The notes: generated by a model from the sequence alone, not told the origin. Numbered from the stretch's first letter, positions 1-47,909 are shown. The stretch is DNA of 64,000 nt from Kiritimatiellia bacterium (GCA_035327585.1 DAOLDD010000014.1:3494-67493); one strand, 5' to 3'. Program-made: numbers and translations.

Positions 1-713
1 GTCCGTACGTAGATTTCGTCGCGTGCACGCCGGTCCCACGCCACCTGATCCGGCGCAGCGGGGAACAGGCGCGTGATGTCGAGGGGCGCGTCCCGTTCCC
101 GGTCCAGCGCAATCCAGAGATAGCGTTCGCCGCTGCCATCGTCGATGCGCAGCAGGAGCCGCGGACTGCGCGGCACGCGCCAGTGGTTCAGCACAACCGC
201 GTCGCGCCACGGCGAGTCCGCCGGCAGCAACGGCCGCAACTTCGCGGTCTCCGCATCCAGAACGGCCCAATCCGATAGGCGGGTACCGCCGGCCAGCACG
301 GCGTACGGACTGCCCGGCGTCGTGAAAAAATCGGACCATGCCTGCGCATCCACCCGGCGTGCCGGGCGGACGTCGGGCAGCAGCAGCACGCGATCGAGAA
401 CCGTTGCGCGCTCGGGCGCGACTGTCACCCGCTGCTGCCAGGGCTCATATCCGGCGCGCACGAGCCGCAATGCGTATTCGCCCGGCAACAGGTCGCGAAT
501 CACCGTGGGCGTGCGACGCGTGTAGCGGCTCGCACCGAGGAACACCTGGGCGTCGTCGGGCGTACTGTTGATGGAGACGAGGCCCGCCCGCACCAGACCG
601 GGTCCCCCGTCGGGGTTATAGATGTACCCGAAGGCATACAGGATCGCGACCGGAGCCGCGACGAGGTATACGGCGAGGAATACGTAGAAAAAAAACTGGC
701 GGATTGCGCGCAC
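1..713 (-). CDS. PEGA-domain membrane protein (3' end runs off the window; absent from the ORF track because there is no in-window stop)
   Basis: Manual reverse-strand translation from GTG at 713 (directly after the TAA stop of the upstream ABC ATPase) stays open to position 1. It has an N-terminal hydrophobic helix (IRQFFFYVFLAVYLVAAPVAILYAF) followed by a PEGA-like segment (GLVSINSTPDDAQVFLG...LLPGEYALRLVRAGYEPWQQRVTV). Confidence 0.5.
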   Translation of the reverse strand, partial: MRAIRQFFFYVFLAVYLVAAPVAILYAFGYIYNPDGGPGLVRAGLVSINSTPDDAQVFLGASRYTRRTPTVIRDLLPGEYALRLVRAGYEPWQQRVTVAPERATVLDRVLLLPDVRPARRVDAQAWSDFFTTPGSPYAVLAGGTRLSDWAVLDAETAKLRPLLPADSPWRDAVVLNHWRVPRSPRLLLRIDDGSGERYLWIALDRERDAPLDITRLFPAAPDQVAWDRRARDEIYVR

Positions 714-1901
714 TTATCCCGCAGCCACGTCCCACCGGCAGGGCAGTTGGAACACGCCGTGAGCGGTGGATTCGTTTTTGACCGCGAACGGATACCAGTC
801 CTCGCGGCGGTGATACTGCGTGGCGTGGTCCCAGGAATGGATCGCGAGCGAGAGGAAATATTTTCCCTCCATCAGCGTAAGCGGCTCAATCGTCAGCCGG
901 ACCACGCCCTCACCCTCCAGCGGAGGCACCGGCACCTCCATGATCTGGGTGTTCGTGCCGAAGATGAAAAACCCGTTGCCCGTCTTGATCGAAAAACCGA
1001 AGACCGCCTGCTCGACCCGCTTTCGCGCGCGGTAGCCGATCTCGACGGTCATGCGGCGTCCGGTGGTGAAGGTGCCGGTTTCCACGCCCGCGTCGTTCAG
1101 CAGGCGCACGTCCGTATATTCGACGTCGCGCGTGCCGTGTTCCTCGACATTGAGGTGGCCGATGCGCGCCATGTAGGTCTTGAGGTAGGTCAGGATGACA
1201 TCCGACGGGTCGCCCTGCGCGACGAGCCGCCCCTGGTGGATCAGCTTCACCTCGTCGCAGAACTGCTCGACGGAGACGAGGTCGTGCGTGACGAGCAGGA
1301 TCGTCTTGCCGCGCTTCTGGAAGTCGCGGATGCGGTCGAAGCACTTCATCTGGAACGCGAGGTCGCCGACCGCGAGCACTTCGTCGACCAGCAGGATTTC
1401 CGGGTTCATCTCGACGGCCACGGCGAAGCCGAGGCGCACATACATGCCGCTCGAATAATTCTTCACCGGCATGTCGATGAAGTCGCGCAAGCCGGAGAAT
1501 TCGACGATGTGGTCCATGCGCCGCGTCACATCCTCGCGCGGGATGCCGAGCACCGCGGCGTTCAGGTACACGTTTTCGCGGCCGGAGAGATCGGGGTGGA
1601 ACCCCGCACCGAGTTCGAGCAGCGACGAGATGGTGCCGTGCGTGCGCACCGCGCCGGTCGTCGGCGTGATCGTGCCCGCGATGAGGCCGAGCAGCGAGCT
1701 TTTGCCCGAGCCGTTCGGCCCGACCACGCCGACGCTCGCGCCGCGCAGCACATTAAACGACACCTCGCGCAGCGCCCAGAACAACTCCGCCTGCTCGCGC
1801 TTCCAACCGCGCACCAGCAGATCGCGCAGCGAGGTTTTCGCCACGCCGCGCAGGCGGTAGCTTTTGCCGAGGTTTTCAACTTCGATGGCCGGTTGCGTCA
1901 T
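714..1901 (-). CDS. wzt: ABC transporter ATP-binding protein, polysaccharide/O-antigen export type (Wzt/KpsT-like) with a C-terminal carbohydrate-binding-like extension
   Basis: Walker A GPNGSGKSS, ABC signature YSSGM, Walker B ILLVDEVLAVGD, and a roughly 150 aa C-terminal beta-rich extension. Start taken at MTQPAIEV (ATG at 1901), not the longer upstream ORF-track start. Confidence 0.85.
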   Translation of the reverse strand: MTQPAIEVENLGKSYRLRGVAKTSLRDLLVRGWKREQAELFWALREVSFNVLRGASVGVVGPNGSGKSSLLGLIAGTITPTTGAVRTHGTISSLLELGAGFHPDLSGRENVYLNAAVLGIPREDVTRRMDHIVEFSGLRDFIDMPVKNYSSGMYVRLGFAVAVEMNPEILLVDEVLAVGDLAFQMKCFDRIRDFQKRGKTILLVTHDLVSVEQFCDEVKLIHQGRLVAQGDPSDVILTYLKTYMARIGHLNVEEHGTRDVEYTDVRLLNDAGVETGTFTTGRRMTVEIGYRARKRVEQAVFGFSIKTGNGFFIFGTNTQIMEVPVPPLEGEGVVRLTIEPLTLMEGKYFLSLAIHSWDHATQYHRREDWYPFAVKNESTAHGVFQLPCRWDVAAG

Positions 1902-1944
1902 GTCGACATATCCGAAATCTGAAATCCGAAATCTGAAATGAAAA

Positions 1945-2745
1945 TCATAGCAGGTCCGCGAAATCCTTTTGGAGCCGCTGGAACAGGCGGTACGCAAACA
2001 CGAAGAAGACCCCGATCGCCGCCAGCGTCACGTACGCGGCGGTCTCCCACGGAAACACCGCGCCGCCGGTGATGACGCAGCGGTAACCGGTGATGATCAC
2101 CGTCAGCGGGTTGAGCAGAAACACGTGCGGCGCCCACGGGTGCGCCTCGGCGTGGCGCGCGACGAAGTCGAGGTTGTACATCACCGGGCTGACGAAGAAC
2201 CATGCGCTGAGCAGGATGCCGACGAGATGCTGTGCGTCGCGCACCACCACATTGAGCCCGGCGAGCAGCAGCGCGAGCGCGAGGTTGAACACGAGGTGCA
2301 CGAGCAGGACCGCGGGCAACAGGAAAATCCACGGGCTGAACGACGCGCCGCTGTAGTGGAACAACACCGCGAGTAACGGGAACTGCACCAGCAGGCTCAT
2401 CGCGTAGGTCGCGGCATTCGCCAGCGTGGCGGAGAGCGGCAGGATGACGCGCGGGAAATAGACCTTCTTCACGAGGTTCGCGCTGCCGGTGATGCTGGTG
2501 AGCCCGGCGTTGACGCACTGCACGGTGAACTGCCACGCGAAGACGCCGATGATGATGTCGGCCATCGGCACGCCGCGCCCGCCGAGCAACCGCAGGAAGA
2601 CCATGTAGATGATCGCCATGAAGAGCGGAATGAGCACGCTCCAGAGAAAACCGAGCACTGAGCCGCGATAGCGCAGTTTCAGCTCCCGGGCGGCGAGGTT
2701 CAGCAGCAACTCGCGGTGCTGCGTGAAGGCGGCGCGCAGGCTCAT
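1945..2745 (-). CDS. wzm: ABC-2 type polysaccharide exporter permease (Wzm-like)
   Basis: Six predicted TM helices, typical ABC-2 permease length (266 aa), and sits directly upstream of wzt in the same orientation. Confidence 0.8.
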   Translation of the reverse strand: MSLRAAFTQHRELLLNLAARELKLRYRGSVLGFLWSVLIPLFMAIIYMVFLRLLGGRGVPMADIIIGVFAWQFTVQCVNAGLTSITGSANLVKKVYFPRVILPLSATLANAATYAMSLLVQFPLLAVLFHYSGASFSPWIFLLPAVLLVHLVFNLALALLLAGLNVVVRDAQHLVGILLSAWFFVSPVMYNLDFVARHAEAHPWAPHVFLLNPLTVIITGYRCVITGGAVFPWETAAYVTLAAIGVFFVFAYRLFQRLQKDFADLL

Positions 2746-3242
2746 GATCCCGCGACCGGCGCGCGCACCAGCCCCTCCATCACCAAGGTCGCGCGGCCCC
2801 GGCCGGGTCCGCCGTCCTCCGCTGCGATCGTAATTTCCACGGCTCGCCAGGGGGCGGGCAGCGCGGCCAGCGTCGCCAGCGTTTCACCAAGTTCCACGAG
2901 ATTCACGCGGTCGATGGTAACCTGAACCCGCTGCAGCGACCAGTCCGGCGTAATGCGTTCACGCTCGGCCTCGCGGACCTCGGTTTTCCAGGCGGGCCGC
3001 TGTTCACGCAACCAGCCAGGCAGAGGCGGCGAGGCGCCCGCGCGCGTCGCGTAAGCCAGCGCATCCCGTTCGGCGGCACGACGGGCGGACTGGTCGCGCA
3101 GCGCGATCCACTCCGCGTGTCGCCGCTCGATCTGGCGCAATCGCCCGGGCGTTTCCCGTACGGCGTAGACGGCGGCGCCGACGGCGAAAAGCGCCAGTGC
3201 AATCAGCGCGGCGGGCGCCAGCCAGGCGGGATTCCGGTTCAT
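2742..3242 (-). CDS. GspM/PilO-like bitopic membrane protein (type II secretion/type IV pilus assembly family), hypothetical
   Basis: 166 aa with a single N-terminal TM (WLAPAALIALALFAVGAAVYAV) and a periplasmic remainder. Its stop overlaps the wzm start and its start overlaps the GspL-like gene. Confidence 0.4.
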   Translation of the reverse strand: MNRNPAWLAPAALIALALFAVGAAVYAVRETPGRLRQIERRHAEWIALRDQSARRAAERDALAYATRAGASPPLPGWLREQRPAWKTEVREAERERITPDWSLQRVQVTIDRVNLVELGETLATLAALPAPWRAVEITIAAEDGGPGRGRATLVMEGLVRAPVAGS

Positions 3243-4603
3243 CGCTCCCCCTGCAACGTAAAGTGCACCCGCTCATCCGCGCCCGCGTCGCGTCGCTCAA
3301 GTTCGACGCGCCAGCCGGCGGTTCCCAAGGCCGACGCGAAGCGCTCGCCATCGTTCCAATCATTCGCCGTGCCGTGGAGGCGAAGCGCCGCACCCTGCGC
3401 GGTCAACGCGTGGAAATGCAGCCCCAGCGTCCGCGCATCGCCCAACACCCGGGCGAGCACGGCGTCAGCGCCCGGTTCGCGATAGCGTGCGAACGAGGCC
3501 CAGCCCGCGGCCTCCCCGTCCAGCGCGCGTTGCGCGGCGAGCAGCTCCTGCCCGCGCGGCAGGCGATCCGTGCCCGCGGCCAGCCGCGCTTCCGCGACGA
3601 GCCGCTCCTGCCACAGCTCCTTCGCGTGCTCCAGGAGGGCCAGTCCGCTGAAGGACACCACCGCCAGCGCGGCGGCCGCGGCGGCCAGCGCCACCCCGAG
3701 CCCGCGGCGGCGGCCCTGCGCCAGGCGAACACCCAGCGGATGCGCCAGCGCGCCCTGCCGCAAATCGCCCTCCGCCTCGGCTCGCGTCAACAGACCGACG
3801 GCCAACGCGCGGGGCAGAAATTCAGCGGGCTCCTTGTGTACGATCGACTTTGGCACGCCACCCGGAAATATCTGCGCCGCGATAGCATCGCGAACGGCGG
3901 CACGCTCCGCCACGGGCCCGCACCAAACCACGTGACAAACCGCGCCCGGCGCCTGCTCCTGTTGCGCGCGCCACCAGAGGGCGAGACGCTGCCCCGCGGG
4001 CGAGCCGGGCGCCGCCAGTTCCTCCGCGCCCAGCCGCAGCCCCGTCGCCGAATCCAAGCCCTTGAACGATCCCGCCACCGCGCTGACCCGGGACCGCCCG
4101 AGATGCACCAGCAGGCGGCGATGCTCACGGCCCAACGGCAACTCCGCCACGCTGTATCGCCACAACGCGACCGCCTCATGCTCCAGCGCCACCGGGTCGC
4201 ATCCCGCCTCCCGCAGGCGATCGAGTTGCGCGACGACATCCTCGGTACGCGCGGCGACGGCCAGCGCCGCCACGCCGCCATCCGCCGTTCGCGCCGGTGA
4301 CAGGAAGTCGTACTGGCAACTCTCCAGCGGGAACGGCAATTCAATGTCCAGCAACGACGGCAGGACCCGGCGCGCCTTTTCGACCGACGCGATCGGCGCG
4401 GTAAGTCGCCGCACGAAACCCGAAAATACCGGCATCGCGGCGGCCACCGGTGCGGCATCGCCCGGCGGGCCGGAAAGTCGGCGAAACTGGATGGCGCCGC
4501 GACGGCGGCTCGCCTCGACGAACGTCCATGCGCCGCCATCGAGATCCACGCCGCAAGCAATGGAACCGTAGCGCCCCATCACGCCGGCTCCGGTTCGATC
4601 CAC
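3239..4603 (-). CDS. GspL/PilM-PilN-like assembly platform protein (cytoplasmic actin-like domain, one mid-protein TM, periplasmic domain)
   Basis: N-terminal segment GSIACGVDLDGGAWTFVE resembles PilM/GspL actin-like folds. There is a single TM near residue 300 (GLGVALAAAAAALAVVSFSGLALL), and the gene is flanked by GspK-like and GspM-like genes. Confidence 0.5.
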   Translation of the reverse strand: MDRTGAGVMGRYGSIACGVDLDGGAWTFVEASRRRGAIQFRRLSGPPGDAAPVAAAMPVFSGFVRRLTAPIASVEKARRVLPSLLDIELPFPLESCQYDFLSPARTADGGVAALAVAARTEDVVAQLDRLREAGCDPVALEHEAVALWRYSVAELPLGREHRRLLVHLGRSRVSAVAGSFKGLDSATGLRLGAEELAAPGSPAGQRLALWWRAQQEQAPGAVCHVVWCGPVAERAAVRDAIAAQIFPGGVPKSIVHKEPAEFLPRALAVGLLTRAEAEGDLRQGALAHPLGVRLAQGRRRGLGVALAAAAAALAVVSFSGLALLEHAKELWQERLVAEARLAAGTDRLPRGQELLAAQRALDGEAAGWASFARYREPGADAVLARVLGDARTLGLHFHALTAQGAALRLHGTANDWNDGERFASALGTAGWRVELERRDAGADERVHFTLQGER

Positions 4604-5913
4604 TGCACCACGCGCACCCGCCCATCATCCTGCCGGAACACCAGCGCCTCAATCGTCATGCGCCGACCCTCCCGCTCCGCCCAGGCCTCCACGCGGAAAA
4701 ACTGACTGCGCACTTCGAGATACGGGCGCACCCGCTCATACGCCTCCACGCCCATCGTGAGCGACAATACGTCGAGTTGCCGGATCGGCCGGATGGCGCG
4801 CAGCGTCAGCACCGTGTCCACCATCCGATCCTGTTCCATGCCCAGGACGGCCAGCAGCGTCGCGCGCGGCGCTGAATTAATGTTGATCGGCAGCGGCCTC
4901 GTCCGCGCCACGGGAATCAGCGTGACCAGGTCCACGAATGTCGCGTCGAACGCACCGCCGCCCGCGAGCGCCCGGTCGCGACGCAGCAAATCCGCCTCGC
5001 CCCAGCCGTCGACGTGCGTCAACTCGCGCCAGCCATACAGGACGCGGTCGGGGCTGCGTTGCGGCGGGTTGAGTCGCCGGTAGAACTCCGCCTCGCGCGA
5101 GCCCGCGCGATCCGCGTCAATAAAGTCGCGCAGCGCCGCGGTGCGGCTCGCCGGGGAGAATTCGCCGCACAGCGTCTGCAGGTCCATCACGATATCCTCG
5201 CAAACGCGCGCGCCGGGCGTGGGCTCGGCGCCGAGGTTGTTCAGGTCGAAGCGCGCCTGCTCATCCCGCACGCGAACCGCGGTCGAAATACCCAGCGGCG
5301 TTTCGGCCCACTGGCGCGCCGCCCATACATCGTTCGTCGTGTCCACGCCGAGGTCCGGGTCGTAGGCGAGTTGCTGGAGCGCGGTGTGCACCGCGTCCAC
5401 GGCGGCCTGGCGGAGTTGATGCCGCTCCGTGGCGGCGCGCTCGTGCGCGGCCCGGGTACGCGCGAGCGCGTGGGACTGGAGCAACAGCGCCGCGACCAAC
5501 CCCGTGAGCACCAGCAGCAGCACGAGCACCCCGCCCTCGCGCGCGTCGGACGGTTTCGGAAGAACAGGTCGTGCCCGGCCCGGCGCCCGGCGCGCATCCT
5601 GTGCGCGGCGGAGACGGCGGCTGGGCGAACGGCGATCCCCCAGCCACTCCGGAAAAATCAGGAATACCCAGCGCGCGAGCAGCACCACCCCACCCCCCGC
5701 CCCAAAGTAGAGCGCCATCTCCAGCAGGCGCCGCCGCTGCGGAATCTGCGCGAACGCCGCAAACAACAGGAAGCCGCACGCGATGACCAGCGCGAGAATG
5801 CCCACGACCATGCCCAACAGGCGGAGGCGATGCCGCATGCCGCGAAACCAGGACCGGGATATGGGACGACGTGAAGCCATGAACCCCCGCACTATGGGAA
5901 ACCCGCCCCTCAC
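4579..5913 (-). CDS. GspK-like minor pseudopilin (type II secretion system protein K family); exact start uncertain
   Basis: Pseudopilin-like hydrophobic helix (GGVLVLLLVLTGLVAALLLQSHAL) followed by a GspK-like periplasmic domain with the characteristic ININSA...LLAVLGM motif. There is an N-terminal extension of about 120 aa with two further hydrophobic stretches, so the true start may be internal. Confidence 0.55.
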   Translation of the reverse strand: MRGGFPIVRGFMASRRPISRSWFRGMRHRLRLLGMVVGILALVIACGFLLFAAFAQIPQRRRLLEMALYFGAGGGVVLLARWVFLIFPEWLGDRRSPSRRLRRAQDARRAPGRARPVLPKPSDAREGGVLVLLLVLTGLVAALLLQSHALARTRAAHERAATERHQLRQAAVDAVHTALQQLAYDPDLGVDTTNDVWAARQWAETPLGISTAVRVRDEQARFDLNNLGAEPTPGARVCEDIVMDLQTLCGEFSPASRTAALRDFIDADRAGSREAEFYRRLNPPQRSPDRVLYGWRELTHVDGWGEADLLRRDRALAGGGAFDATFVDLVTLIPVARTRPLPININSAPRATLLAVLGMEQDRMVDTVLTLRAIRPIRQLDVLSLTMGVEAYERVRPYLEVRSQFFRVEAWAEREGRRMTIEALVFRQDDGRVRVVQWIEPEPA

Positions 5914-5985
5914 GCGCCACTACTTTTCAAGCCACCGTCCACCCCGCCGCCCGACTATAATCCCGCGGCGGTTCAGTTTCCGGGG

Positions 5986-6915
5986 CTAGGCGCCGAGGGC
6001 GCGGCGGGTGTCTTCGAGGTCGCGCGCGATTTGCGCCTTCAGGGCATCAAGGGAGTCGAAGGTCCACTCGTCGCGCAGCTTCCGGACGAATTGCACATCG
6101 ATATCCTGGTCGTACAGATCCAGCGACGCGTCGAGCAGGTGCACCTCGACCACGTCGGCCGGCCCCTTGCGCAGGTCGGGGTGCGCGGTCAGGAAAGCGG
6201 CGGCGGCATACACGCGGTCCTCCACGAGCGCACGGCAGGCGTAGATGCCGGGCGGAGGACGGACTTCATTGTGTGGGTCGACGTTCGCGGTGGGATAACC
6301 GAGCGTGCGCCCCAATTTCGTGCCGTGCACCACGGTGCCGTAGATGCTGAACGGGCGACCCAGCATCGCGGAGGCGGATTCCAAATCCCCCGCGGCGACG
6401 GCCTGGCGGATGCGGGTGCTGGATACCAGCCGGCCGCCCCACTCGACCCCGGGCATAACCTCGACGCGAAACCGGCGTTCCGCGCCCAGCGTGCGCAGCA
6501 ACTCCACCGTCCCGCGCGCGCGCCGGCCGAAGGTCCAGTTCGCGCCGACGACAAAGGCGTGGAGCGACGGCACCGCCGCCCGCACATGTTCAATGAACGC
6601 CTCGGGCTCCTGCGCGGAAAATTCCTCGCTAAACGGAAGCAGCGCGACGCCATCCACGCCCTGCGCGCGCAACAACTGCAGGCGGTGCGGGGTCGAAGTC
6701 AGCAGCGCGGGCGCTCGATCGGGTCGCAGGACTTTCAGCGGATGCGGGTCAAACGTCAGCACCCAGGCCTGTCCGCCCACGGCGATGGCGAGCTCGCGCG
6801 CGCGGGCCAATACCGCCTGGTGCCCGCAATGTACGCCGTCAAACGCACCGGCGGCGAACACCACCGGCCGGGCTTCACCGGCCAGCTCCTCCAAACGTGT
6901 AAGGGTCCGCATCAT
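5986..6915 (-). CDS. ribF: bifunctional riboflavin kinase / FMN adenylyltransferase
   Basis: N-terminal nucleotidyltransferase motif GAFDGVHCGHQ, C-terminal riboflavin kinase motifs (GYPTANV, PPGIYA), 309 aa. Confidence 0.9.
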   Translation of the reverse strand: MMRTLTRLEELAGEARPVVFAAGAFDGVHCGHQAVLARARELAIAVGGQAWVLTFDPHPLKVLRPDRAPALLTSTPHRLQLLRAQGVDGVALLPFSEEFSAQEPEAFIEHVRAAVPSLHAFVVGANWTFGRRARGTVELLRTLGAERRFRVEVMPGVEWGGRLVSSTRIRQAVAAGDLESASAMLGRPFSIYGTVVHGTKLGRTLGYPTANVDPHNEVRPPPGIYACRALVEDRVYAAAAFLTAHPDLRKGPADVVEVHLLDASLDLYDQDIDVQFVRKLRDEWTFDSLDALKAQIARDLEDTRRALGA

Positions 6916-7664
6916 GGAAGGGCGCGAAGGTTCAACGATGCGATGGACCGCACCCGCGCGGCCAGCGCCGCCCGGTCGAACGCGACCAGGTCTTCAAACC
7001 GCACCGCGTCCGCGACATCCAGCGCGCCCGCACGGGTGCGACGGAGCGTGTTCATGCACGCGCCGCAACCAAGCCCCTCGCCCACGTCGTGGCAGAGTGT
7101 GCGCACATAGGTGCCCTTCGTGCAGCGCACACGGAACCGCGCGAGCGGCGGCGCAAAATCGAGCAGCGCGAATTCATAAATGTGCAACAGGCGCGGCTCG
7201 CGCGCGATTTCCTGCCCGTTGCGCGCCATCTTGTAGAGCGCGACGCCGTCCTTCTTGATGGCCGACACCATGGGCGGAATCTGATCCACATCGCCGGTCC
7301 ACTTCCGGAATTCCGCGGCGAGCGGCTCGCGCGTGACCGCGGAGGGGTCGCGGCGCGACAGGATTTCGCCCTCGGCGTCGTGCGTATCCGTGGTGACACC
7401 GAGCACGAGCGAGCCCTCGTACACCTTGTCCGTGCTCATGATCGCCTGCGAGAGCTTGGTGGCGCGGCCCAGCAGCAGGACGAGCAGCCCGGTGGCGCCG
7501 GGGTCGAGCGTCCCGCCATGCCCCACCTTGGGGAGGTTGAAGATGCGGCGCACGGCGTCCACGAGGTCGTGCGAGGTCGGCCCGGCGGGCTTGTCCACGA
7601 GCAGTACGCCGTCGAGCTCATCCCCGGCGCGCGGGGCGCCTCCCCTGTAGCGGCCGTGCCTCAT
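6912..7664 (-). CDS. truB: tRNA pseudouridine(55) synthase
   Basis: Motif GVLLVDKPAGPTSHDVV...GHGGTLDPGATGLL (catalytic Asp in GTLDP). Overlaps ribF by 4 nt. Start taken at the internal Met (an alternative upstream start is at 7709). Confidence 0.9.
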   Translation of the reverse strand: MRHGRYRGGAPRAGDELDGVLLVDKPAGPTSHDLVDAVRRIFNLPKVGHGGTLDPGATGLLVLLLGRATKLSQAIMSTDKVYEGSLVLGVTTDTHDAEGEILSRRDPSAVTREPLAAEFRKWTGDVDQIPPMVSAIKKDGVALYKMARNGQEIAREPRLLHIYEFALLDFAPPLARFRVRCTKGTYVRTLCHDVGEGLGCGACMNTLRRTRAGALDVADAVRFEDLVAFDRAALAARVRSIASLNLRALP

Positions 7665-8065
7665 GATCCGGCGGCGGGGGCGGACGCGTCGGTCGAGTCG
7701 TCCTCCCACTCGGGATGCTCCGCCTCCATCTCGGCGATCATCGACAACACCTGGTCGCCCTGCGCGATGGAGTGGTCGAGTTCGAAAATGAGCTGCGGCG
7801 TGTACTTCATCTTGATGTCGCGGTTGATGAGGTTCTGCAGCTCGATGCGGTGACCGCGGATGAGCGCCAGCATCTCCTCCTGCGTCTCCGGCTCGCCGCG
7901 GATGGACACCAGCACGCGCGCGTGGCGCAGGTCCGCGCTGGTGAGGACGCGGGTGACGGTGACCGCGGCGGCGTCGAAACCGGGCTCATTGACGAGGCGG
8001 AACAGATATTCCGCCACTTCCTGGCGAAGCAACTGGTTGATGCGCGTCAAACGCTGCGGACGCAT
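7661..8065 (-). CDS. rbfA: ribosome-binding factor A
   Basis: Begins MRPQRLTRINQLLRQEVAEYL, similar to the RbfA N-terminus, about 135 aa, and in the conserved position between infB and truB. An alternative start is at 8080. Confidence 0.85.
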   Translation of the reverse strand: MRPQRLTRINQLLRQEVAEYLFRLVNEPGFDAAAVTVTRVLTSADLRHARVLVSIRGEPETQEEMLALIRGHRIELQNLINRDIKMKYTPQLIFELDHSIAQGDQVLSMIAEMEAEHPEWEDDSTDASAPAAGS

Positions 8066-8098
8066 GGCGACTCCTCCCAAACCCCGCGCGCGGAGCGG

Positions 8099-10117
8099 TT
8101 ACAGTTGTTGGGCGATCTTTTCGACCTCGTACACCTCGACGACGTCGCCCGGTTCAAAGTCGCCGAAATGATCCAGCCGCAGGCCGCACTCCTGGCCCTC
8201 GCGCACCTCGGCCGCCTCGTTCTGGAAGCGGCGCAGGGTGGAGACGCTGCCCTCGTACAATACATCGCCCCGGCGCTTGACGCGCGCGCGCCCGCGCGCG
8301 GTGATGCGGCCGTCGGTGACAATGCAGCCGGCGACCTTGCCCTTTTTGCCGAGATCGAAAAGCTGTTTGACCTGCGCATGGCCGAGGATCGTCTCGCGGA
8401 CGATCGGCTCCAGCAGGCCCTGCATCAGCTCCTTCAACTCGTCCAGCATCTCGTAAATGATGCTGTAGAGCCGCACCTCGACGCCCTCGCGCTTCGCGGC
8501 GGAGGAGACTTCCGTGTCCTTGCTGACATGGAAGCCGAGGATGATCGCCTTGGACGCGCTGGCCAGCAATACATCGTTCACATTGATGTTGCCGATGCCG
8601 GCGAGGACGATTTGGTGGTCCACCTTGTCGCTTTTGATGTTGCCGATGGCGTATTGGAGCGCCTCCAGCGAACCCTGCGTGTCCACCTTGAGCAACATCG
8701 AAAGCGTCTTCCTGCCCGCCTCGGCGCCTGCCTGGAACAGGTCCTCCAGCGAAGCGCGCTTCGGCGACTGGCCGGCGAGCGATTCCTCGCGTTTGACGAA
8801 CTGACGCGCATCCGACTCGGCGCGCGCGGCTTTCTCGTCCGCCATTACGGTAAATTCCGCGCCGGCTTCCGGGACGCCGGACAGGCCGAGACATTTCACG
8901 GCATCCGACGGCCCCACGCTCTTCACGCGTTCGCCACGGTCGTTGATGAGCGCCTTGATGCGGCCCCAGTGCAGGCCGCACAGCACCGCGTCGCCAACCT
9001 TGAGGGTGCCCTCGCGCAGCAGCAGCGTCGCCGTGGGGCCCATGCCGGGCTCCATGCGCGCCTCGACCACGAAGCCCTGCGCGGGCTTGCGCGGGTTCGC
9101 CTTGAGCTCGAGGATTTCCGCCTGTGCGATGATGTTTTCGAGAAACTCGGGTATGCCGTCGCCGTTCAGCGCGCTGACCGGGCAGCAAATCACGTCGCCG
9201 CCCCAATCCTCCGGGTTGATGCCCAGGGCCTGGAGCTGCTGCTTGACGCGGTCGCCGTTGAATGCGCGCAGGTCCTTCTTGTTCAGCGCGACCATGATGG
9301 CGACCTTCGCGGCCTGCGCGTGCTGGATGGCCTCCTTGGTCTGCGGCATGATGCCGTCCACGCCGTCAATCACGATGACCGCGATGTCGGTGAGGTTCGC
9401 GCCGCGCGCGCGCATCGCCGTGAAGGCCTCGTGGCCGGGCGTGTCCAGGAAGGTGATCTTGTGCTTGTCCTTGCCGCCGACCGTGACGGTGTAGGCGCCG
9501 ATGTGCTGCGTGATGCCGCCATCCTCGCCGGCCGCGACGCGGCTGTTGCGGATCTTGTCGAGCAGCGACGTTTTGCCATGGTCGACATGGCCCATGAAGA
9601 CGACGACCGGCGGGCGGGTGACGATGTTCTCGGGAACGTCGATTTTCTCGACGACCGGCTTCACCTTCGGCTTCGGCGGCGGCGGCGGGGGCTTGACCTC
9701 CACCTTCTTTTCCAGTTCGACCGTCCACTCCCACTTCGCGGCGATCTGCTGCGCGATCTTCATCTCGATCTTCTGGTTGATCGAGGCGAAGATGTTCATC
9801 TTCATCAATTCGGCGATGAGCAGGTTGGGCTTCACGCCCATGTGCTCGGCGAATTCGCGCACGATGATCGGAAAGCCCGGTTTGACCGTGATCACCTTGC
9901 GATCGGGCGCGGACGACACGGGCGCATCCGAATGCGCCGCCTCGGCGGGCGAGGGTTCCGCGGCCGCGGGCGCATAGGCGCCGCGAAGCGCCGCGACCTG
10001 TTCGGCGGTCAGTACGCTCATATGGTTGCGCACTTCGCCCGCGTTCAAGGCCTGCAATTTTTCAATCAGGTCCTTGGTCGGCCGCTCCAGCTCTTTGGCT
10101 AGCTCAAAAACTCTCAT
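8099..10117 (-). CDS. infB: translation initiation factor IF-2
   Basis: G-domain motifs GHVDHGKTSLLD, DTPGH and NKKD, followed by the C-terminal beta-barrel domains; 672 aa. Confidence 0.95.
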   Translation of the reverse strand: MRVFELAKELERPTKDLIEKLQALNAGEVRNHMSVLTAEQVAALRGAYAPAAAEPSPAEAAHSDAPVSSAPDRKVITVKPGFPIIVREFAEHMGVKPNLLIAELMKMNIFASINQKIEMKIAQQIAAKWEWTVELEKKVEVKPPPPPPKPKVKPVVEKIDVPENIVTRPPVVVFMGHVDHGKTSLLDKIRNSRVAAGEDGGITQHIGAYTVTVGGKDKHKITFLDTPGHEAFTAMRARGANLTDIAVIVIDGVDGIMPQTKEAIQHAQAAKVAIMVALNKKDLRAFNGDRVKQQLQALGINPEDWGGDVICCPVSALNGDGIPEFLENIIAQAEILELKANPRKPAQGFVVEARMEPGMGPTATLLLREGTLKVGDAVLCGLHWGRIKALINDRGERVKSVGPSDAVKCLGLSGVPEAGAEFTVMADEKAARAESDARQFVKREESLAGQSPKRASLEDLFQAGAEAGRKTLSMLLKVDTQGSLEALQYAIGNIKSDKVDHQIVLAGIGNINVNDVLLASASKAIILGFHVSKDTEVSSAAKREGVEVRLYSIIYEMLDELKELMQGLLEPIVRETILGHAQVKQLFDLGKKGKVAGCIVTDGRITARGRARVKRRGDVLYEGSVSTLRRFQNEAAEVREGQECGLRLDHFGDFEPGDVVEVYEVEKIAQQL

Positions 10118-11415
10118 GACGCTCCCGGCTCCGGGCTCGACGGCGCGCCAGTCGGCGGGGCGGATTCAGCGGAGCCTCCGCGCGCCTCCGCGGCGGCGCG
10201 CACCGCGGCGGCGTCCTCCGGCGTGAAGCCCTCAATGGCCTGCAAATCCTCCACATCGGCGGCGAGAATGCCGTCGAGCGTGAGAAAGCCCGAGTGGACG
10301 AGCTGTGCCGCCCGCGTGGCGCCAATGCCGTCGATCGCGGCCAGCGCCGCAACGGCGTTGGCGACCTTCTCCTCGAAGCCGATCGCCGACTCATCCTTTT
10401 GGATGTCGATCTTCCAGCCGGTCAGCTTGGACGTGAGCCGCGCATTCTGGCCCTTCTTGCCGATGGCGAGCGAAAGCTGGTCCGGCGCAACAATGACATT
10501 CACGGTGTGCGACGCTTCGTCCACCGCGACCTTGGTCAGCTTCGCGGGCGCCAGCGCGTTCGTCACGAACACCTTGACGTCCTCGTTCCAGCGCACGATA
10601 TCGATTTTCTCGCCCGACAATTCGCGGACGATGTTCTTCACGCGGATGCCGCGCATGCCGACGCACGCGCCGACCGGATCGACCTTTTCGTCGCGCGAGA
10701 CGACGGCGATTTTGCTGCGGAAACCCGGCTCGCGCGCGATGCCGCGCATCTCAACCGTCTTGTCGTTGATCTCCGAAACCTCGAGCTCAAACAGCCGCTT
10801 TACAAAGTCGGGATGGCTGCGCGTCAGGACGATGCGGGTGCCGGAGGCATCGCTCGTCACATCGAGGACCAGCGCGCGAATCTTATCGCCCACCTGGTAT
10901 TCCTCAATGGGCACGCGCTCCTTGGCCGGCAGCACCGCCTCGGCGAAGCCGTCGAGCCCGAGAATCACGTCGCTGCGCTCGAACCGGCGCACCGTCCCAC
11001 TGACGATGTCGCCAACACGGTTCTTGTATTCATCAAACACCTTGTCGCGCTCCGCCTGGCGGATTCGGTTGAGAATCGCCTGCTTCGCCGTCTGCGCGGC
11101 GATGCGTCCGAAATTTTTCGGCGTCACTTCGACTTCAAGAAAATCGCCGAGCTTCGCGTCCGCCTTGATGCGCTGGGCGGCCTGAAGCCCGATTTCGTCG
11201 TGCGAGGCGCGCACGCGTTCTACCACCTGGACGCGTGCCAACGCCTTGATATCGCAGGTTTTGCGATCAATTTCGATGCGCAGATCCTTGGCAGGGCTGA
11301 CGCTCTTCTTGGAAGCCGTCATCAATGCGCCCTCAACGGCCTTGATCAGCGTCTCGCGCTCAATGCCGCGCTCGCGCTCCATATAGTCTAAAACTGCAAG
11401 CAACTCATTATTCAT
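10114..11415 (-). CDS. nusA: transcription termination/antitermination factor NusA
   Basis: N-terminal NusA domain, S1 and KH domains (GxxG motifs), and a C-terminal acidic repeat region; overlaps infB by 4 nt. Confidence 0.95.
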   Translation of the reverse strand: MNNELLAVLDYMERERGIERETLIKAVEGALMTASKKSVSPAKDLRIEIDRKTCDIKALARVQVVERVRASHDEIGLQAAQRIKADAKLGDFLEVEVTPKNFGRIAAQTAKQAILNRIRQAERDKVFDEYKNRVGDIVSGTVRRFERSDVILGLDGFAEAVLPAKERVPIEEYQVGDKIRALVLDVTSDASGTRIVLTRSHPDFVKRLFELEVSEINDKTVEMRGIAREPGFRSKIAVVSRDEKVDPVGACVGMRGIRVKNIVRELSGEKIDIVRWNEDVKVFVTNALAPAKLTKVAVDEASHTVNVIVAPDQLSLAIGKKGQNARLTSKLTGWKIDIQKDESAIGFEEKVANAVAALAAIDGIGATRAAQLVHSGFLTLDGILAADVEDLQAIEGFTPEDAAAVRAAAEARGGSAESAPPTGAPSSPEPGAS

Positions 11416-11499: not shown

Positions 11500-11856
11500 C
11501 GCCAGCGGCCGCACAGATAACCGGTATAGACTGCCCGCAGCAGCCATACCGGTCAAGTGGTAAAAGCGGCCATTGGCGTTTTGGATGTGATCCGACAAAT
11601 CCTCGTCTCACGCGGCGCAGGATTTAAGCTCACCGATTTCTCGCCTAATGCCCGGGTTAAACTATTGACCTCCGACCCGGGTTTTCGGATGCTTGATCGT
11701 TGGTGGGGAAGTCGTCTTCACCTGTCGGCACGCACTCGTGGGGTGTGCAGTGATGTCGAGAGAGGTAAACTTTAAGTTCGGGACAGCGTAGCTTAAGAAC
11801 TGTGGGCGGGGGCTCCCTTGGGGGGCGCGTCGGGCCGCTTGCGTCACAACGGGAAC

Positions 11857-12486
11857 ATGAGGGCATTGCTACACAAATCGCGGCACGCGGTGGCCGTTGC
11901 GCTTTGCGCGCTCGGCTTGGCCGCAGCGCCGGCCGACGCCGCCATCGTCGACCTTGATGCCTATGTCCTGAATCCGATTCTTCAGGACGACGGCATCACG
12001 CCGCTCGCGGACGGTTCCTGGGTCATGATTATCGGCAGTTGGGATGGAACGATCGACCCGATGGTGCAAATAGGACCCGACTACATCGCCGCCTCGGTCA
12101 CCGGCGACGACGTCATCCTCGGCATTGTACAAATCGACAGCCTCTTCGGCCCCGGCACCTTCGGCACCACGGTCCAGTACGACTCCACCCTGGTTAACAA
12201 TGTCTACATCCGCTTCTTCGATACAACCGGGCCGCTGACGGGTATGATCTGGTGGGGTACATCCCCGATGATTGGGCCGGTTGGCGTAACGCTCGGCGTG
12301 ACCACCGTTCAGTTCGATCCCGGGGGAAGCCTGCAGGTAGATCAGGAAAACAACTTCGTCATCATCCCGGAACCGGGCACGGCCAATTTGTTGCTGCTGG
12401 TGGGCGGCATGATCTGGGCCATGCGCGCAAAGATGGCGCGAAAGAAAAACAAGGATCAGGAAGAAACCGGGCGCGAAAGCAGCTAG
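11857..12486 (+). CDS. PEP-CTERM sorting-domain secreted protein
   Basis: Signal peptide [28 protein letters not shown]. The C-terminus is [31 protein letters not shown], which is a PEP motif plus a TM helix plus a basic cluster (exosortase substrate signature). The longer ORF-track start at 11818 is rejected. Confidence 0.8.
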
Positions 12487-13439: not shown

Positions 13440-14687
13440 ATGAACTCCTCCCCGTCCCGTGAACCCGTGCGCCCCATCGTGCTCGGCATTTGTGGCGGCA
13501 TTGCGGCCTACAAGGCCGTCGACGTCGCGAGCCGGTTGCGCAAGGCCGGCCACGATGTCCACGTGGCCATGACCGAGGCGGCCGCCGCCTTTGTCACGCC
13601 GCTCACCTTCGCCGCCGTTTCCGGCAATCCCGTCCTGGATCGCCTGCTGCCCGCAGCGGACGCCGGCGGCGAGCGTTCCTATCCACATCTCTATCCCGCC
13701 ACGCGCGCGGCGGCGTTCATCGTCCTGCCCGCGACCGCCAATACGCTCGCCAAACTCGCACACGGCCTCGCACCCGACCTCGTCGCAGCCTGCGCGCTCT
13801 CACTGCCCGCCGACTGCGCGCGCATCATCTGCCCGGCCATGAACGTGGAAATGTGGCGCAACCCTGTTGTACAGGACAATGTCCGGACCCTCGAAGCGCG
13901 CGGCTGGCTGCGCGTCGGCCCCACCAGCGGCGCGCTCGCGTGCGGCATGGAGGGCGAAGGTCGCCTGAGCGAACCGGCGGACATCGTCGCGACGCTGAAC
14001 GCGCAGCTCAACGCGGCGCGCTCGCTCGCGACCCGGCGTGTACTCGTGCTTTCGGGCCCGACGCGCGAGCACTTTGATCCGGTGCGGTTTATCGGCAATC
14101 CCAGCTCCGGAAAAATGGGCCGCGCGCTCGCCGAGGCAGCGGCCCGCGCGGGCGCGCACGTCGATTTCATCACCGGGCCCGTTCCGGAGGAAAACCTGCC
14201 GCGCCACCCCGCGATCACCATCGAGCGCATCACCAGCGCCGAAGACCTGCTCGCCGCCGCACGCGCGCGATTCGACGCGGCGGACATCGTGATTTACGCC
14301 GCCGCCGTCGCCGACTACCGCCCCGTACGGTACCAGCACGAGAAGCTGCCCAAACGAACCGGCGCGCTGACGCTGAATCTCGAGGCCACGCCCGATGTCG
14401 CCGCCGCGCTCAATGCGCAAAAACGTCCCGGCCAGGTCGCCATTGGCTTCGCCCTGCAAACGCATGACGGCGCCGCGAAGGCCGCGGAAAAAATGGCCCG
14501 CAAACAATTCGACGGCATCGTCCTCAACGCGCTCGACGCCCTCGGCGGAGACACCGGCGGCTACACGTGGATCGAACCCGGCGCCGCTCCCCAACCGTGG
14601 GGTACCCTCGCCAAACCCGACTGCGCCCTCCGCATCCTCGCCCGCGCCGCCGAATGGCTCGCCGCCAAACGCGCCGCTCAACCTTGA
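13440..14687 (+). CDS. coaBC: bifunctional phosphopantothenoylcysteine decarboxylase / phosphopantothenate-cysteine ligase
   Basis: N-terminal flavoprotein domain ([15 protein letters not shown]), C-terminal CoaB ligase domain (GNPSSGKMG), about 415 aa. Confidence 0.9.
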
Positions 14688-14730
14688 GCGAAATCGGGCA
14701 ATCACTCATCCAGGCAGCCCCCCCCTCGCA

Positions 14731-14757
14731 CCCCGCAAGGGGATGCTCCCCTTTTTA
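14731..14757 (+). terminator. putative intrinsic terminator downstream of coaBC
   Basis: Hairpin AGGGGA-TGC-TCCCCT (or the alternative CCCC-GCAA-GGGG) followed by TTTTTAAAG. Confidence 0.45.
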
Positions 14758-14937
14758 AAGTAATTCTCGAAAGTTTTGTCCTGTTGGTTGTAGCGACGGG
14801 ATTTCATCCCGTCGGCCCAAATCCGACGGCCGTCGCTACAGCGGTTCATGACAAAACCTTTGAGAGTTACTCCAGTTGTTGTAACCGAGCCCGCTGGCAC
14901 GGAACAGCCATCTTCAGCAGCATCCTATTTGCTATTT

Positions 14938-14978
14938 TGGGGGCTGACCCCATTTTGCCCCCATTTTGTCGTTTTGCC
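14938..14978 (+). terminator. putative intrinsic terminator (second, about 250 nt downstream of coaBC)
   Basis: Stem TGGGGGC...GCCCCCA followed by TTTTGTCGTTTTGCC. There is no annotated + strand CDS between the two terminators. Confidence 0.4.
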
Positions 14979-15002
14979 TGATCTTTTACAAACCGCGGCT
15001 CC

Positions 15003-15884
15003 CTATTCGCGTGGTTCGCGGGTACCCGCTTCGTCCGCGGCTGCACGCTGCATCAGCCAGTCGGCCAGCGCCTCGGCGCCCTGCAGCCAGCGAGGGCCGG
15101 GGCGCAGGAGCCAGTCGGACGGAATTTCGCTGCAAATCGCGCCGCGCTCGACCGCGGGCAAACGCCGCCAGCCGGGCCGGCGCGCCAGATAGCCCGCGCC
15201 CGGCTCGGCGCGCGGGATCATGTAGGCGAGCACAATCACGTCGGGCTTCTGCTGCAAAATCCACTCCGCGCTTACGTGCGCGTAAGGCCGGTCCAGCGCC
15301 GCGCCGAGATTACGTCCGCCCGCGAGTTCCACGAGGTCGTGCAGAAACGACGGACGTCCCGGCGTCGTCAGCGGATCACTCCATACCTCGACATACGTCA
15401 GCGGCCGCGCGCGCGCCGCCCAGTACGCGTCCACCCGCCGCGCCAGCGCATCGCGTCGCGCACGCGCATGCGCCACCCAACGCGCCGCGCCATCCGGATC
15501 GTCCAGCGCCGTGCCCAGCGCCTCCACCGCCGCCATCATCTGTTCCCAACTCTCGCACGGCAACCGCAGGAACTGGATGCCCGCCGCGCGCAGCGCATCC
15601 GCGAGCCCCGGCCGCTCCACGTCCGTACTCACCACCACGTCCGGCTTCGCGCGCAGCAGCCACTCCAGGTTCGGCCGCCCGAATGAACCGGCCACCGGCA
15701 GCGTCGCCGCCTCCGGCGGAAAATCGCACGCGTCCGACCGCGCCATGAGCCGGTCGCCCCACCCCGCGTCGTAAATGAGTTCGGTGAACGACGGCGCCAG
15801 GCTTGCGATCCGCCGCACGGGCTCGCCAGCTCCCGCCACGCGACACGCAGCCAGCAGGAGCAAAAAAATCAGAACATTGCGCAT
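15003..15884 (-). CDS. ABC transporter periplasmic substrate-binding protein, BtuF/FhuD-like (cobalamin/iron-siderophore/heme class)
   Basis: Signal peptide, then IASLAPSFTELIYDAGWGDRL and PDVVV...PDVIVL blocks typical of helical-backbone (class III) binding proteins; 293 aa. Confidence 0.75.
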   Translation of the reverse strand: MRNVLIFLLLLAACRVAGAGEPVRRIASLAPSFTELIYDAGWGDRLMARSDACDFPPEAATLPVAGSFGRPNLEWLLRAKPDVVVSTDVERPGLADALRAAGIQFLRLPCESWEQMMAAVEALGTALDDPDGAARWVAHARARRDALARRVDAYWAARARPLTYVEVWSDPLTTPGRPSFLHDLVELAGGRNLGAALDRPYAHVSAEWILQQKPDVIVLAYMIPRAEPGAGYLARRPGWRRLPAVERGAICSEIPSDWLLRPGPRWLQGAEALADWLMQRAAADEAGTREPRE

Positions 15885-16105
15885 GCCCCATTCCTACCAC
15901 GAACCCGTCGCACGGTCACGGACCACCGCCCGCCATCCGCCTCTTATAGGACTTTCCCAAGCTTTGTTTGCCCCCACCGGCCTTGCGCCGGTGGAGCAAA
16001 AGTTCCTCGGCTACCGGGACACAAGGGGATCACCCGCCATCCGCCTCGTCCGTTGACACCTGCAAGGGCGCGTGCAAATATGGCTCCACTTTTCGGGAGA
16101 TCATC

Positions 16106-16606
16106 ATGGCTGTACTCATGGGCATGTCGGGCGACGTCAAAGGGAAGACGTTCCCCATCGGGGACGAGGGACTAACCCTCGGGCGCCATGCCGACAACCA
16201 GGTCTCCCTCAACAACGCCACCGTCTCGGGCCACCACGCCGTCATCAAGCGCGAGGGCGACCAATATATCCTGCGCGACCTCGGCTCCACCAACGGCTCC
16301 CGCGTCAACTCGCGCGAGATCAAGGAATCGCCGCTCCGCCCGAAGGACCTCGTTCAGATCGGCTCCGTCGAATTCCTCTTCAATTCCGAGGCGATGAGCT
16401 TCGAGGACGCACAGGCCGTCTTCACCCGCACCGAGGTGCTCGAAACCAAGGGAGGCACGGAAATGCCGGAATCGTTCGGCAACATCTCCCCGTTCGGCGC
16501 GCGCCGCCGCGAGAACCTGACGATCTGGATTCCAATCATCGCCGTGCTCGGCCTGCTCGCCGTCGGCGTGGTGATTTACCTCCTCATCAAGCTGTTCACC
16601 GCCTGA
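16106..16606 (+). CDS. FHA-domain protein with a C-terminal transmembrane anchor
   Basis: FHA motifs (LTLGRHADNQVSL...SGHHAVI...LRDLGSTNGSRVN) and a C-terminal TM helix IWIPIIAVLGLLAVGVVIYLLI. Start set at MAVLMGM (the ORF-track start at 15968 is rejected). Confidence 0.8.
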   Translation: MAVLMGMSGDVKGKTFPIGDEGLTLGRHADNQVSLNNATVSGHHAVIKREGDQYILRDLGSTNGSRVNSREIKESPLRPKDLVQIGSVEFLFNSEAMSFEDAQAVFTRTEVLETKGGTEMPESFGNISPFGARRRENLTIWIPIIAVLGLLAVGVVIYLLIKLFTA

Positions 16607-16618
16607 GGACCGCCCTCC

Positions 16619-17293
16619 GTGCGGCCCCTCTCGCCACCAAGCGCACGCGCGGCCCGGACCGCGAACGGCTTTACGCTGGTCGAACTCCTGCTCGCCGCCG
16701 CCATCGCGGTCCTCGTCGCCGCGCTCGCCTGGTCCCTGCTCTCCACCACGACGCGCTCGGTCGAATCGCAAATGGACCGGGCACGCGGCCCGGCGGCGGC
16801 CGCCGCCGCGATTGATCAACTCCGGTCGGACCTCAACGCCCTCTTCATCGCGGAGGACGACCCCGTCACCGCGCTCGAACTACAGTCGGGCAGCGACCAA
16901 CCCTTCTCCCTCACCTTCTGCACCATCCGCGCAACCGGGCGCACCCCCGACCTCGTGTGGACGGAACCGCGCCGCGTGGAATACCGGCTCGCCGCCTCCG
17001 GCGCGGATGAAGCCGCCAGCCTCGTCCGCCTTGAACAGTCGCTGTCCGGCCCCATCGAAACCGTCACCAACACCGTGCTCGACCGCGTCACCGCCCTGAA
17101 CCTCGCCTTCAGCGATGGCGAAACCTGGCACGCCACCTGGCCGCCCGCCGACCAGAACGACGCACGCCCCCGCGCCGCGCGCGCGACCATCCAATCCGGC
17201 AGCGGCGAGCCCGCGGAAGCCGAATTCTGGCTCCCCATCGGCCACGCCGTCACCTCCCGCCTCCTCCGCACCGGCCAGTCGGCGCCGGAATAG
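16619..17293 (+). CDS. prepilin-type N-terminal cleavage/methylation domain pseudopilin (GspJ/GspH-like)
   Basis: Leader ...ANG|FTLVELLLAAAIAVLVAALAWSLL, giving a G-F-T-L-V-E prepilin peptidase site with Glu at +5; 224 aa. Confidence 0.75.
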   Translation: MRPLSPPSARAARTANGFTLVELLLAAAIAVLVAALAWSLLSTTTRSVESQMDRARGPAAAAAAIDQLRSDLNALFIAEDDPVTALELQSGSDQPFSLTFCTIRATGRTPDLVWTEPRRVEYRLAASGADEAASLVRLEQSLSGPIETVTNTVLDRVTALNLAFSDGETWHATWPPADQNDARPRAARATIQSGSGEPAEAEFWLPIGHAVTSRLLRTGQSAPE

Positions 17294-17349
17294 CAAACCC
17301 ACGAATTCCCCCGGCTTGAGCCGCGCCGGACATCGCGTATAGTGCCGGC

Positions 17350-17661
17350 ATGCTGAGCGGAAAAATCATCGTCGGGTTGGTGCTCGTCGGCCTCGCGCTC
17401 ACTGGCGGCGGCTACGCCTCCTACACCAACGTGCGCGACGCCCGGGGCCCGCGCGAACGCCGCTTCGTCATCCGCGTCTGCGTGCTCGGCTGGCTGCTCA
17501 TCCTCTCCATGCTCGCCCTCGTCTATGCGCTGCCCGCGCCGTACCGCTACATCACCGCCCTCGTCTACTTCGTGGTCACGCCCGTCATCATCTACCGCTG
17601 GTCGCTCACCCACCAGTTGCTGCGCGTGCTCGACGAACGGGAACGCCCCGACGCGCCATGA
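17350..17661 (+). CDS. small membrane protein, hypothetical
   Basis: 103 aa with three hydrophobic helices; coding bias is consistent with the surrounding genes. Confidence 0.45.
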   Translation: MLSGKIIVGLVLVGLALTGGGYASYTNVRDARGPRERRFVIRVCVLGWLLILSMLALVYALPAPYRYITALVYFVVTPVIIYRWSLTHQLLRVLDERERPDAP

Positions 17662-18122: not shown

Positions 18123-18190
18123 GGCGCCGGGTGGTCCGGGCGCTCCGCGCACGGAAACGCCGCGCGGAGCGCGGCGTCCACCCACGAAGC

Positions 18191-45977: not shown

Positions 45978-45980
45978 CGC

Positions 45981-47903: not shown

Positions 47904-47909
47904 GTCGCC

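Follow-up and report, generated by a model that had tools for sequence, protein, structure and literature searches.

The stretch of DNA considered here comprises 64,000 nucleotides (nt) from a Kiritimatiellia bacterium (GCA_035327585.1, DAOLDD010000014.1:3494-67493), and we refer to the whole of it as "the window." It opens with a block of genes in which three proteins resembling type II secretion system (T2SS) parts are encoded together with a Wzm/Wzt polysaccharide exporter of the ATP-binding cassette (ABC) type, and it is the meaning of this association that concerns us. Six co-directional open reading frames (ORFs), all on the minus strand, occupy positions 1-5913 and meet at overlapping or abutting junctions. 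In order of transcription these are K, a GspK-like minor pseudopilin (4579-5913; 444 amino acids (aa) from a GTG at 5913, or 419 aa from the ATG at 5838 in the public call); L, a GspL-like platform protein (3239-4603; GTG start, with an alternative ATG at 4579); M, a GspM/PilO-like protein of 166 aa assigned by its fold (2742-3242); Wzm, the ABC-2 permease of an O-polysaccharide-type exporter, recognised through Pfam ABC2_membrane and the Aquifex Wzm (1945-2745); Wzt, an ABC ATPase with a C-terminal carbohydrate-binding domain (CBD), recognised through ABC_tran and Wzt_C (714-1901); and a membrane-anchored PEGA-domain protein with a GTG start (3-713), of which the N-terminal 237 of 437 aa are present before the window edge cuts the gene.

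The junctions are very close. K and L overlap by 25 nt, or by 1 nt if L starts at its alternative ATG; L overlaps M, and M overlaps wzm, by 4 nt each; wzm and wzt are separated by 43 nt; and the GTG of the PEGA gene directly abuts the TAA of wzt. GC content by codon position speaks for coding in all six genes, and a scan of 1-6400 for promoters and terminators returned nothing above shuffled expectation inside the block. An earlier, sequence-only reading of this DNA had described six overlapping or abutting genes here, and every ORF lies where it was placed, with the junctions as described. In the source lineage, K-L-M-Wzm-Wzt is a single tight operon with the PEGA gene at its 3' end.

That reading also expected the operon to run on past the window, as it does. 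The DNA beyond the left edge was taken from a public contig that carries the same DNA (locus L001), and it holds the remainder of the PEGA gene (437 aa in full), a 537-aa family 2 glycosyltransferase (GT2) overlapping it by 4 nt, and a 150-aa protein with multiple transmembrane (TM) segments. GspD, GspE, GspF, or glycosyltransferases had been named as what might follow the PEGA gene; what follows is these two genes, with no GspD, GspE, or GspF, and then an oppositely oriented toxin-antitoxin pair, VapB/VapC (PIN; L001 15477-16057), which closes the operon and is succeeded by dnaK and groES/groEL.

Both transporter subunits have Pfam matches above threshold. Wzm matches ABC2_membrane (E=3e-15), the Aquifex Wzm structure 6m96_B (E=7e-15), and TarG (E=4e-10), and Wzt matches ABC_tran (E=3e-18) and Wzt_C (E=1.5e-30). 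Against full-length Aquifex aeolicus Wzt (8dku/7k2t), the similarity (E=1e-73) runs over residues 10-375 and includes the CBD. The pair is accordingly made up of an ABC-2 permease and a nucleotide-binding domain carrying a C-terminal Wzt_C domain. To judge from homology, Wzm/Wzt would export a capped glycan linked to undecaprenyl diphosphate.

K is annotated publicly as GspK, and the similarity to GspK spans its periplasmic domain. It aligns with positions 9-307 of the 307 in NCBIfam T2SS_GspK (NF037980, E=1.3e-26) at 93.9 bits, below the curated cut-off of 130, and scores 26.7 bits against Pfam T2SSK_1st. The single sequence found nothing useful among Protein Data Bank (PDB) sequences; a profile of the 37-member family found XcpX (5vtm_X, E=1e-19) and GspK of enterotoxigenic Escherichia coli (3ci0_K, E=8.5e-13). 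The glycine at the prepilin cleavage position (G127) is invariant and the hydrophobic helix is present, with no glutamate at +5. Ahead of that pseudopilin helix lie two extra TM helices (window 5539-5838, minus strand), in an extension of some 100-125 residues that has coding-type GC by codon position and leaves no in-frame start close to the helix. Most homologues keep the three TM segments; a minority (L024, L026, L027, L038, and L048) have a short form with the usual N-terminus and no extra helices. A prepilin with a membrane-embedded leader of about 100 residues would be unusual.

Similarly, L and M could be placed, although both are listed as "hypothetical" in public annotation. The L family profile matched PilM (2ych, E=5e-8) with its N-terminal part and PilN (3jc8_N, E=4.5e-3) with residues 311-445. 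In an AlphaFold2 (AF2) model with a predicted local distance difference test (pLDDT) score of 90, L has an actin-like domain, one TM helix (residues 298-316), a long coiled coil, and a ferredoxin-like, PilN-like periplasmic domain. Foldseek matched this model to PilM (5eq6, E=6.5e-14) and to the cytoplasmic domains of PulL/EpsL (5tkw, 1yf5, and 4pht), which are largely covered, with target-normalised TM-scores of 0.57-0.66. Since an actin-like domain, a single TM helix, and a periplasmic ferredoxin-like domain fused in one polypeptide, in effect PilM-TM-PilN, is the architecture of GspL, we regard L as GspL-like. For M, neither the sequence against Pfam (T2SSM and PilO included), NCBIfam, and PDB sequences nor its profile against PDB sequences gave a relevant match. 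Its AF2 model (built from a 14-sequence alignment; pLDDT 83) combines an N-terminal TM helix and a long helix with a ferredoxin-like domain, and the best Foldseek matches in the PDB are PilO (5uvr/2rjz), the PulM C-terminal domain (8ab1_C/8a9x), and Amuc_1100, with modest E-values from 3e-3 and a probability of 1.0. On these predicted structures, the GspL-like and GspM/PilO-like assignments hold. The identities first suggested from sequence for K, L, M, Wzm, Wzt, and the PEGA protein are therefore borne out by profiles, AF2/Foldseek, and Pfam taken together. The proposed check by hidden Markov models, taken by itself, matched four of them (K, below the curated NCBIfam cut-off, Wzm, Wzt, and PEGA) and left L below the curated Pfam thresholds (GspL_C, E=0.11 and 12.7 bits against 29.6; PilM_2, 21.4 bits against 27) and M unmatched; L is placed by its family profile and its fold, and M by its fold.

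How widely the arrangement occurs was assessed from both of its ends. Starting from L, whose family is specific (451 representatives at E<=1e-30 among 1.84 billion proteins), 80 genomic loci were recovered, all in metagenome-assembled genomes of Kiritimatiellia, Lentisphaerota, or Victivallales type and none from Kiritimatiella, Pontiella, or Tichowtungia; the presence of K in them was scored with stop-to-stop ORFs. K lies directly upstream of L in 66 of the 76 loci with enough flanking sequence, and M follows L with a 4-nt overlap that is near-universal across 76 loci. As a trio standing on its own, K-L-M is found in some 80 Kiritimatiellia/Lentisphaerota genomes. Wzm-Wzt comes directly after M in 17 of the 61 species-level genomes with enough downstream sequence, and in two further loci cut by contig ends. 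Of 21 loci, 11 have an M-to-Wzm spacing of -4 nt and most of the others one of <=30 nt. On a tree of L, linked loci are spread over all of the Kiritimatiellia-type half, where the linkage has been lost at several scattered points, and the other, Lentisphaerota-type half has none; L identity among the linked loci goes down to about 24-31%. From the other end, a metagenome scan seeded only with the Wzt CBD recovered 63 loci at 50-78% identity (L087-L149), and 25 of the 31 with enough upstream DNA have M and L, and usually K too, directly before wzm. The remaining six include L143, whose surroundings are glycan-related (an epimerase and a GT4), and L120, with the same gene layout as L143.

The linkage of K-L-M with Wzm-Wzt is therefore strong in both directions. 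That T2SS parts beside Wzm/Wzt would be unusual, and that synteny in related genomes would tell, had been anticipated; the association proved to be real, conserved, and reciprocal, with the K-L-M-Wzm-Wzt order recurring and the PEGA gene left out of it. Chance adjacency can be rejected, given how often the order returns in species genomes and in contigs found through the CBD.

In addition, the linked Wzt and Wzm form one tight orthologous group that co-diverges with L. Where L has a mean pairwise divergence of 0.65, that of Wzt is 0.32 and that of Wzm 0.40, and their distances correlate with those of L (r=0.69 and 0.80, respectively); on this ground we reject the repeated, independent recruitment of different transporters. 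Among 20 linked loci, the Wzt CBD has a mean identity of 62%, with 40 of 144 positions invariant, and this conservation argues for a conserved glycan cap. No recurrent glycosyltransferase cluster was found beside wzm-wzt; past wzt, the other linked loci carry RecN, LacI, and miscellaneous genes that differ from one locus to the next. Nor is wzm-wzt grouped with glycosyltransferases and a chain terminator, since a GT2 occurs only in the source lineage and in L008 and is of the synthase type. As no glycosyltransferase cluster recurs, it is K-L-M to which the transporter is tied, and not the genes of synthesis. Neighbour clustering revealed no recurrent extra family other than PMT_2, a tetratricopeptide repeat (TPR) protein, and RecN, and hence no recurrent polysaccharide co-polymerase (PCP) or outer membrane polysaccharide export (OPX) gene, a result obtained with no dedicated PCP/OPX models.

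The remainder of a T2SS was sought and not found nearby. A Pfam scan of the 20 largest ORFs of the window showed no GspD, GspE, GspF, or GspG, no ORF in it has a T2SE-type Walker A motif, and none of the four lies within 10 kb beyond its edge. Clustering of neighbours across the 80 L-anchored loci turned up no GspD/E/F/G family that recurs within 10 kb, and in no locus do pseudopilin genes (gspG-H-I-J) adjoin K. We therefore reject a complete T2SS locus close by. The T2SE-type Walker A motif was seen in only three of about 143 loci: L057 has three such T2SE/PilB-type ORFs in a row (14597-19116, minus strand), 3-8 kb downstream, and L135 (10970-12952, plus strand) and L137 (8262-10244, plus strand) have one each, about 4 kb after wzt. 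Within the window, a lone GspJ-like pseudopilin gene stands on the plus strand at 16619-17293, 10.7 kb from K (32.8 bits against Pfam T2SSJ, with GFTLVELL as its N-terminal methylation motif). It comes directly after a gene (15968-16606, plus strand) whose product has an FHA domain and, at its C-terminus, a TM helix. This GspJ-like gene, alone and on the opposite strand from K, shows that T2SS-type genes are scattered in the source genome. Both T2SS and lipopolysaccharide (LPS) genes have been reported in Kiritimatiella glycovorans (Spring et al., PMC5148204).

The genes at the 3' end of the operon are a different matter. The PEGA protein matches Pfam PEGA (E=5e-10) and nothing in the PDB. The GT2 has DAD and QKRRW (QxxRW) motifs, several TM helices, and weak similarity to PgaC/Glyco_trans_2_3; by sequence, this combination is the signature of a processive synthase. 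Apart from the source contigs, homologues of the PEGA protein and the GT2 occur only in L008 and are absent from 19 other linked loci, and none of the 63 Wzt-anchored loci has a homologue of either or of the 150-aa gene. We read the three as a lineage-specific, synthase-type add-on outside the conserved module, and reject the PEGA and GT2 genes as core parts of it, confined as they are to the source and L008.

Other genes recur near K. One, seen in about 16 of 69 loci, encodes a co-directional membrane glycosyltransferase of some 580 aa (PMT_2; GT-C, ArnT/PMT-like) and ends at the start of K, as in L016, L019, L021, L023, L024, L026, L030, L036-L038, and L048, and in 27 loci a divergently transcribed TPR protein lies upstream. 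The window has no PMT_2 homologue; distant TPR-profile matches fall at 34441-36180 and 47904-49499, and neither a TPR nor a PMT_2 gene is arranged upstream of K there. What lies directly upstream of the block in the window is a co-directional nusA-infB-rbfA-truB-ribF cluster (5986-11415, minus strand), across a gap of 72-147 nt. Since no terminator-like site was found, read-through from the ribF operon into the K-L-M block is possible.

The window also holds a probable exopolysaccharide (EPS) cluster under cyclic di-GMP control (41591-47903, plus strand). It encodes a GAF-GGDEF-REC-HD(GYP) protein (41591-44254), a PilZ-GT2 synthase with chitin-synthase-like matches (44328-45977), and, at 45981-47903, a protein of 640 aa whose sole match, a faint one, is to polysaccharide deacetylase, all on the plus strand. 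A polysaccharide deacetylase family protein is encoded at 31588-32709 (minus strand), and an LpxC homologue at 52297-53325 (minus strand), from which it would follow that lipid A is made. Finally, a 222-aa, secreted-looking protein (11818-12486, plus strand) without a Pfam match ends in a 29-residue tail that is PEP-CTERM-like by eye.

Taken together, the gene order makes a functional link between K-L-M and Wzm/Wzt likely, and suggests that secretion-type machinery takes part in polysaccharide export. The reading that we prefer, and hold tentatively, is that the five genes form one conserved Kiritimatiellia module whose products may be made together and serve the same export process. A conserved glycan, end-capped and polyprenyl-linked, would be built in the cytoplasm by enzymes encoded elsewhere; the C-terminal domain of Wzt would recognise its cap, and Wzm/Wzt would carry it across the inner membrane. 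The L/M platform might sit with the transporter and, aided by pseudopilus parts tipped by K and by the other T2SS components encoded at scattered places, might pass the polymer towards the outer membrane in place of the usual PCP/OPX partners. In the source lineage only, the PEGA protein, the QxxRW synthase-type GT2, and the small membrane protein would have been added at the 3' end of the operon. We favour one export process because the coupling is deep and reciprocal, neither PCP/OPX nor synthesis genes were seen beside the transporter, a GT-C gene is a neighbour of K, and there is a precedent among secretins. PilQ/GspD secretins are required for the secretion of slime and EPS, with the inner-membrane partner unknown (Zuckerman, So & Hoiczyk 2025, PMC12475490), and in the cyanobacterial hps locus, as Risser & Meeks (2013) are cited in that article, pseudopilins are mixed with glycosyltransferases. 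The hybrid export apparatus put forward in the sequence-only reading is made reasonable by the conserved coupling; a physical complex between its parts, and a role for a secretin in it, we only infer.

A more specific form of this idea is that a T2SS-derived platform, comprising a GspL/GspM-like cage and a GspK-like tip, was recruited as the periplasmic and outer partner of an ABC-dependent polysaccharide pathway, with Wzm/Wzt taking the place of GspF/GspE. We consider that version unlikely as it stands.

Several points weigh against a shared export process. The evidence for the function of the module comes from the order of genes in uncultured lineages; a secretin, GspE/F, or major pseudopilin gene was found neither in the window nor, for almost all loci, within 10 kb; and the coupling is not obligatory, since the two sets of genes have come apart several times, are not adjacent anywhere in the Lentisphaerota-type half of the tree, and, for six of 31 Wzt orthologues, K-L-M is missing. 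Glycans exported by Wzm/Wzt are normally handed to WaaL and Lpt, with no further conduit required. The dispersal of T2SS genes weakens any argument from K-L-M standing apart, and the trio could simply belong to the protein-secreting T2SS reported for the phylum (PMC5148204). These considerations lead to the main rival explanation, namely that two independent machines share an operon: a scattered, protein-secreting T2SS and an exporter whose glycan, an LPS O-antigen or one resembling the common antigen, would be ligated to lipid A-core, their shared transcription reflecting co-regulation of envelope biogenesis and nothing more. The isolated GspJ-like gene, the T2SS and LPS synthesis reported for Kiritimatiella (PMC5148204) together with LpxC in the window, the heptose-pathway-like genes near some loci (HldD-like, GmhB-like, and one GT9), and the repeated loss of adjacency all agree with it. 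However, unrelated genes rarely keep overlapping junctions at a depth of 25-35% identity, about 80% of the Wzt orthologue group stands behind L-M with its linkage to synthesis genes lost, and the GT-C gene flanking K is an independent second glycan enzyme. On balance, we judge it somewhat unlikely that two machines merely share a transcript.

The same GT-C gene could be taken to mean that the module serves glycosylation, with the Wzm/Wzt glycan, GT-C-transferred sugars, or both decorating pseudopilins or T2SS cargo at the periplasmic face. There are analogies in Pseudomonas, where the oligosaccharyltransferase TfpW glycosylates type IV pilins and O-antigen units are put on pilins by TfpO-type systems (bioRxiv 10.1101/2020.04.19.049825, 10.1101/150227). 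However, with no PMT_2 homologue the window lacks an oligosaccharyltransferase, and for a low-abundance tip subunit such as K a dedicated, highly conserved polymer exporter seems excessive, which makes this use of the module improbable. The transporter might instead be an accessory of the filament machine, needed for the assembly or export of the pseudopilus and not for a surface glycan, by analogy with PilG/PilH/PilI of Myxococcus xanthus. The pilH mutants of Wu et al. 1998 reportedly had no pili, and the transporter here follows L-M, where platform and ATPase would act. The PilG/H/I genes, which are ABC-transporter-like, are likewise embedded in a pil gene cluster (PMC6060248). Against this stand a bona fide and strongly conserved CBD in Wzt and full-length matches of both subunits to the Aquifex O-antigen channel, which argue for a glycan substrate, so that we rate an accessory role as quite improbable. 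Last, the sequence-only reading had raised an envelope-spanning S-layer or surface-glycan assembly organised around the PEGA protein, whose gene does abut wzt and overlap the GT2 gene by 4 nt in the source contig. With the PEGA and GT2 genes limited to the source and L008 and absent from 19 other linked loci, neither they nor the 150-aa gene occurring in the 63 Wzt-anchored loci, no S-layer protein seen, and a PEGA-QxxRW GT2 pair that resembles a separate synthase-type module, such an assembly is very improbable.

Comparison with known systems helps to show what is familiar here and what is not. In a canonical T2SS (Xcp, Pul, or Eps), K, L, and M are likewise encoded, and in this order. Here, however, the trio is alone, with no gspC-J, D, E, or F within 10 kb at about 140 loci; K has its two-TM extension of some 100-125 residues instead of a short leader; L and M fall below Pfam and NCBIfam thresholds; and an ABC exporter follows. 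The Wzm/Wzt O-antigen transporters (A. aeolicus, PDB 7K2T/8DKU; E. coli O9a type) are similar over the full length of both subunits, Wzt_C included. They differ in that the present genes lie outside a glycosyltransferase/terminator cluster, are translationally coupled to gspM-like genes, and encode a CBD that is conserved across the whole class, whereas O-antigen CBDs vary by serotype. Capsule export by KpsMT-KpsE/KpsD likewise involves an ABC-2 exporter needing a periplasm-spanning partner built from single-pass proteins with coiled-coil periplasmic domains; in our loci no recurrent PCP/OPX gene turned up (with the limit on models given above), and the folds of L and M are the unrelated PilN/PilO. 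PilH, to our knowledge, has no Wzt_C domain. The M. xanthus PilG/PilH/PilI genes resemble the present case in being ABC-transporter-like genes inside a type IV filament cluster, beside pilM-N-O (PMC6060248); the setting is the type IVa pilus there and GspK/L/M here, and the likeness drawn here is one of context. In the secretin-dependent slime/EPS and hps systems (PMC12475490), parts of the type IV filament/T2SS family also have a genetic connection with polysaccharide export, and genes for pseudopilins and glycans are mixed. The parts there are secretins, several pseudopilins, and glycosyltransferases, with a synthase-type route suspected, whereas ours has L, M, a tip pseudopilin, and an ABC route.

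Both components are thus of known kinds, and what is new is their conserved fusion in one operon, the extension of K, and a transporter orphaned from its synthesis genes. In the literature library that we searched, nothing linking Wzt with GspL was found. Two protein families left as hypothetical in public annotation, those of L and M, are also assigned folds here. Three routes of polysaccharide export are recognised in Gram-negative bacteria. If a T2SS-derived platform has indeed been recruited as the partner of Wzm/Wzt, it would represent a fourth Gram-negative glycan-export architecture, and would fill in what is missing at the inner membrane in secretin-dependent polysaccharide secretion. 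Should the coupling prove to be only regulatory, it would still be a useful marker of the dispersal of T2SS genes in the Kiritimatiellia. In either case, the operon is a concrete and testable candidate for the joining of filament-type machinery to a glycan exporter.

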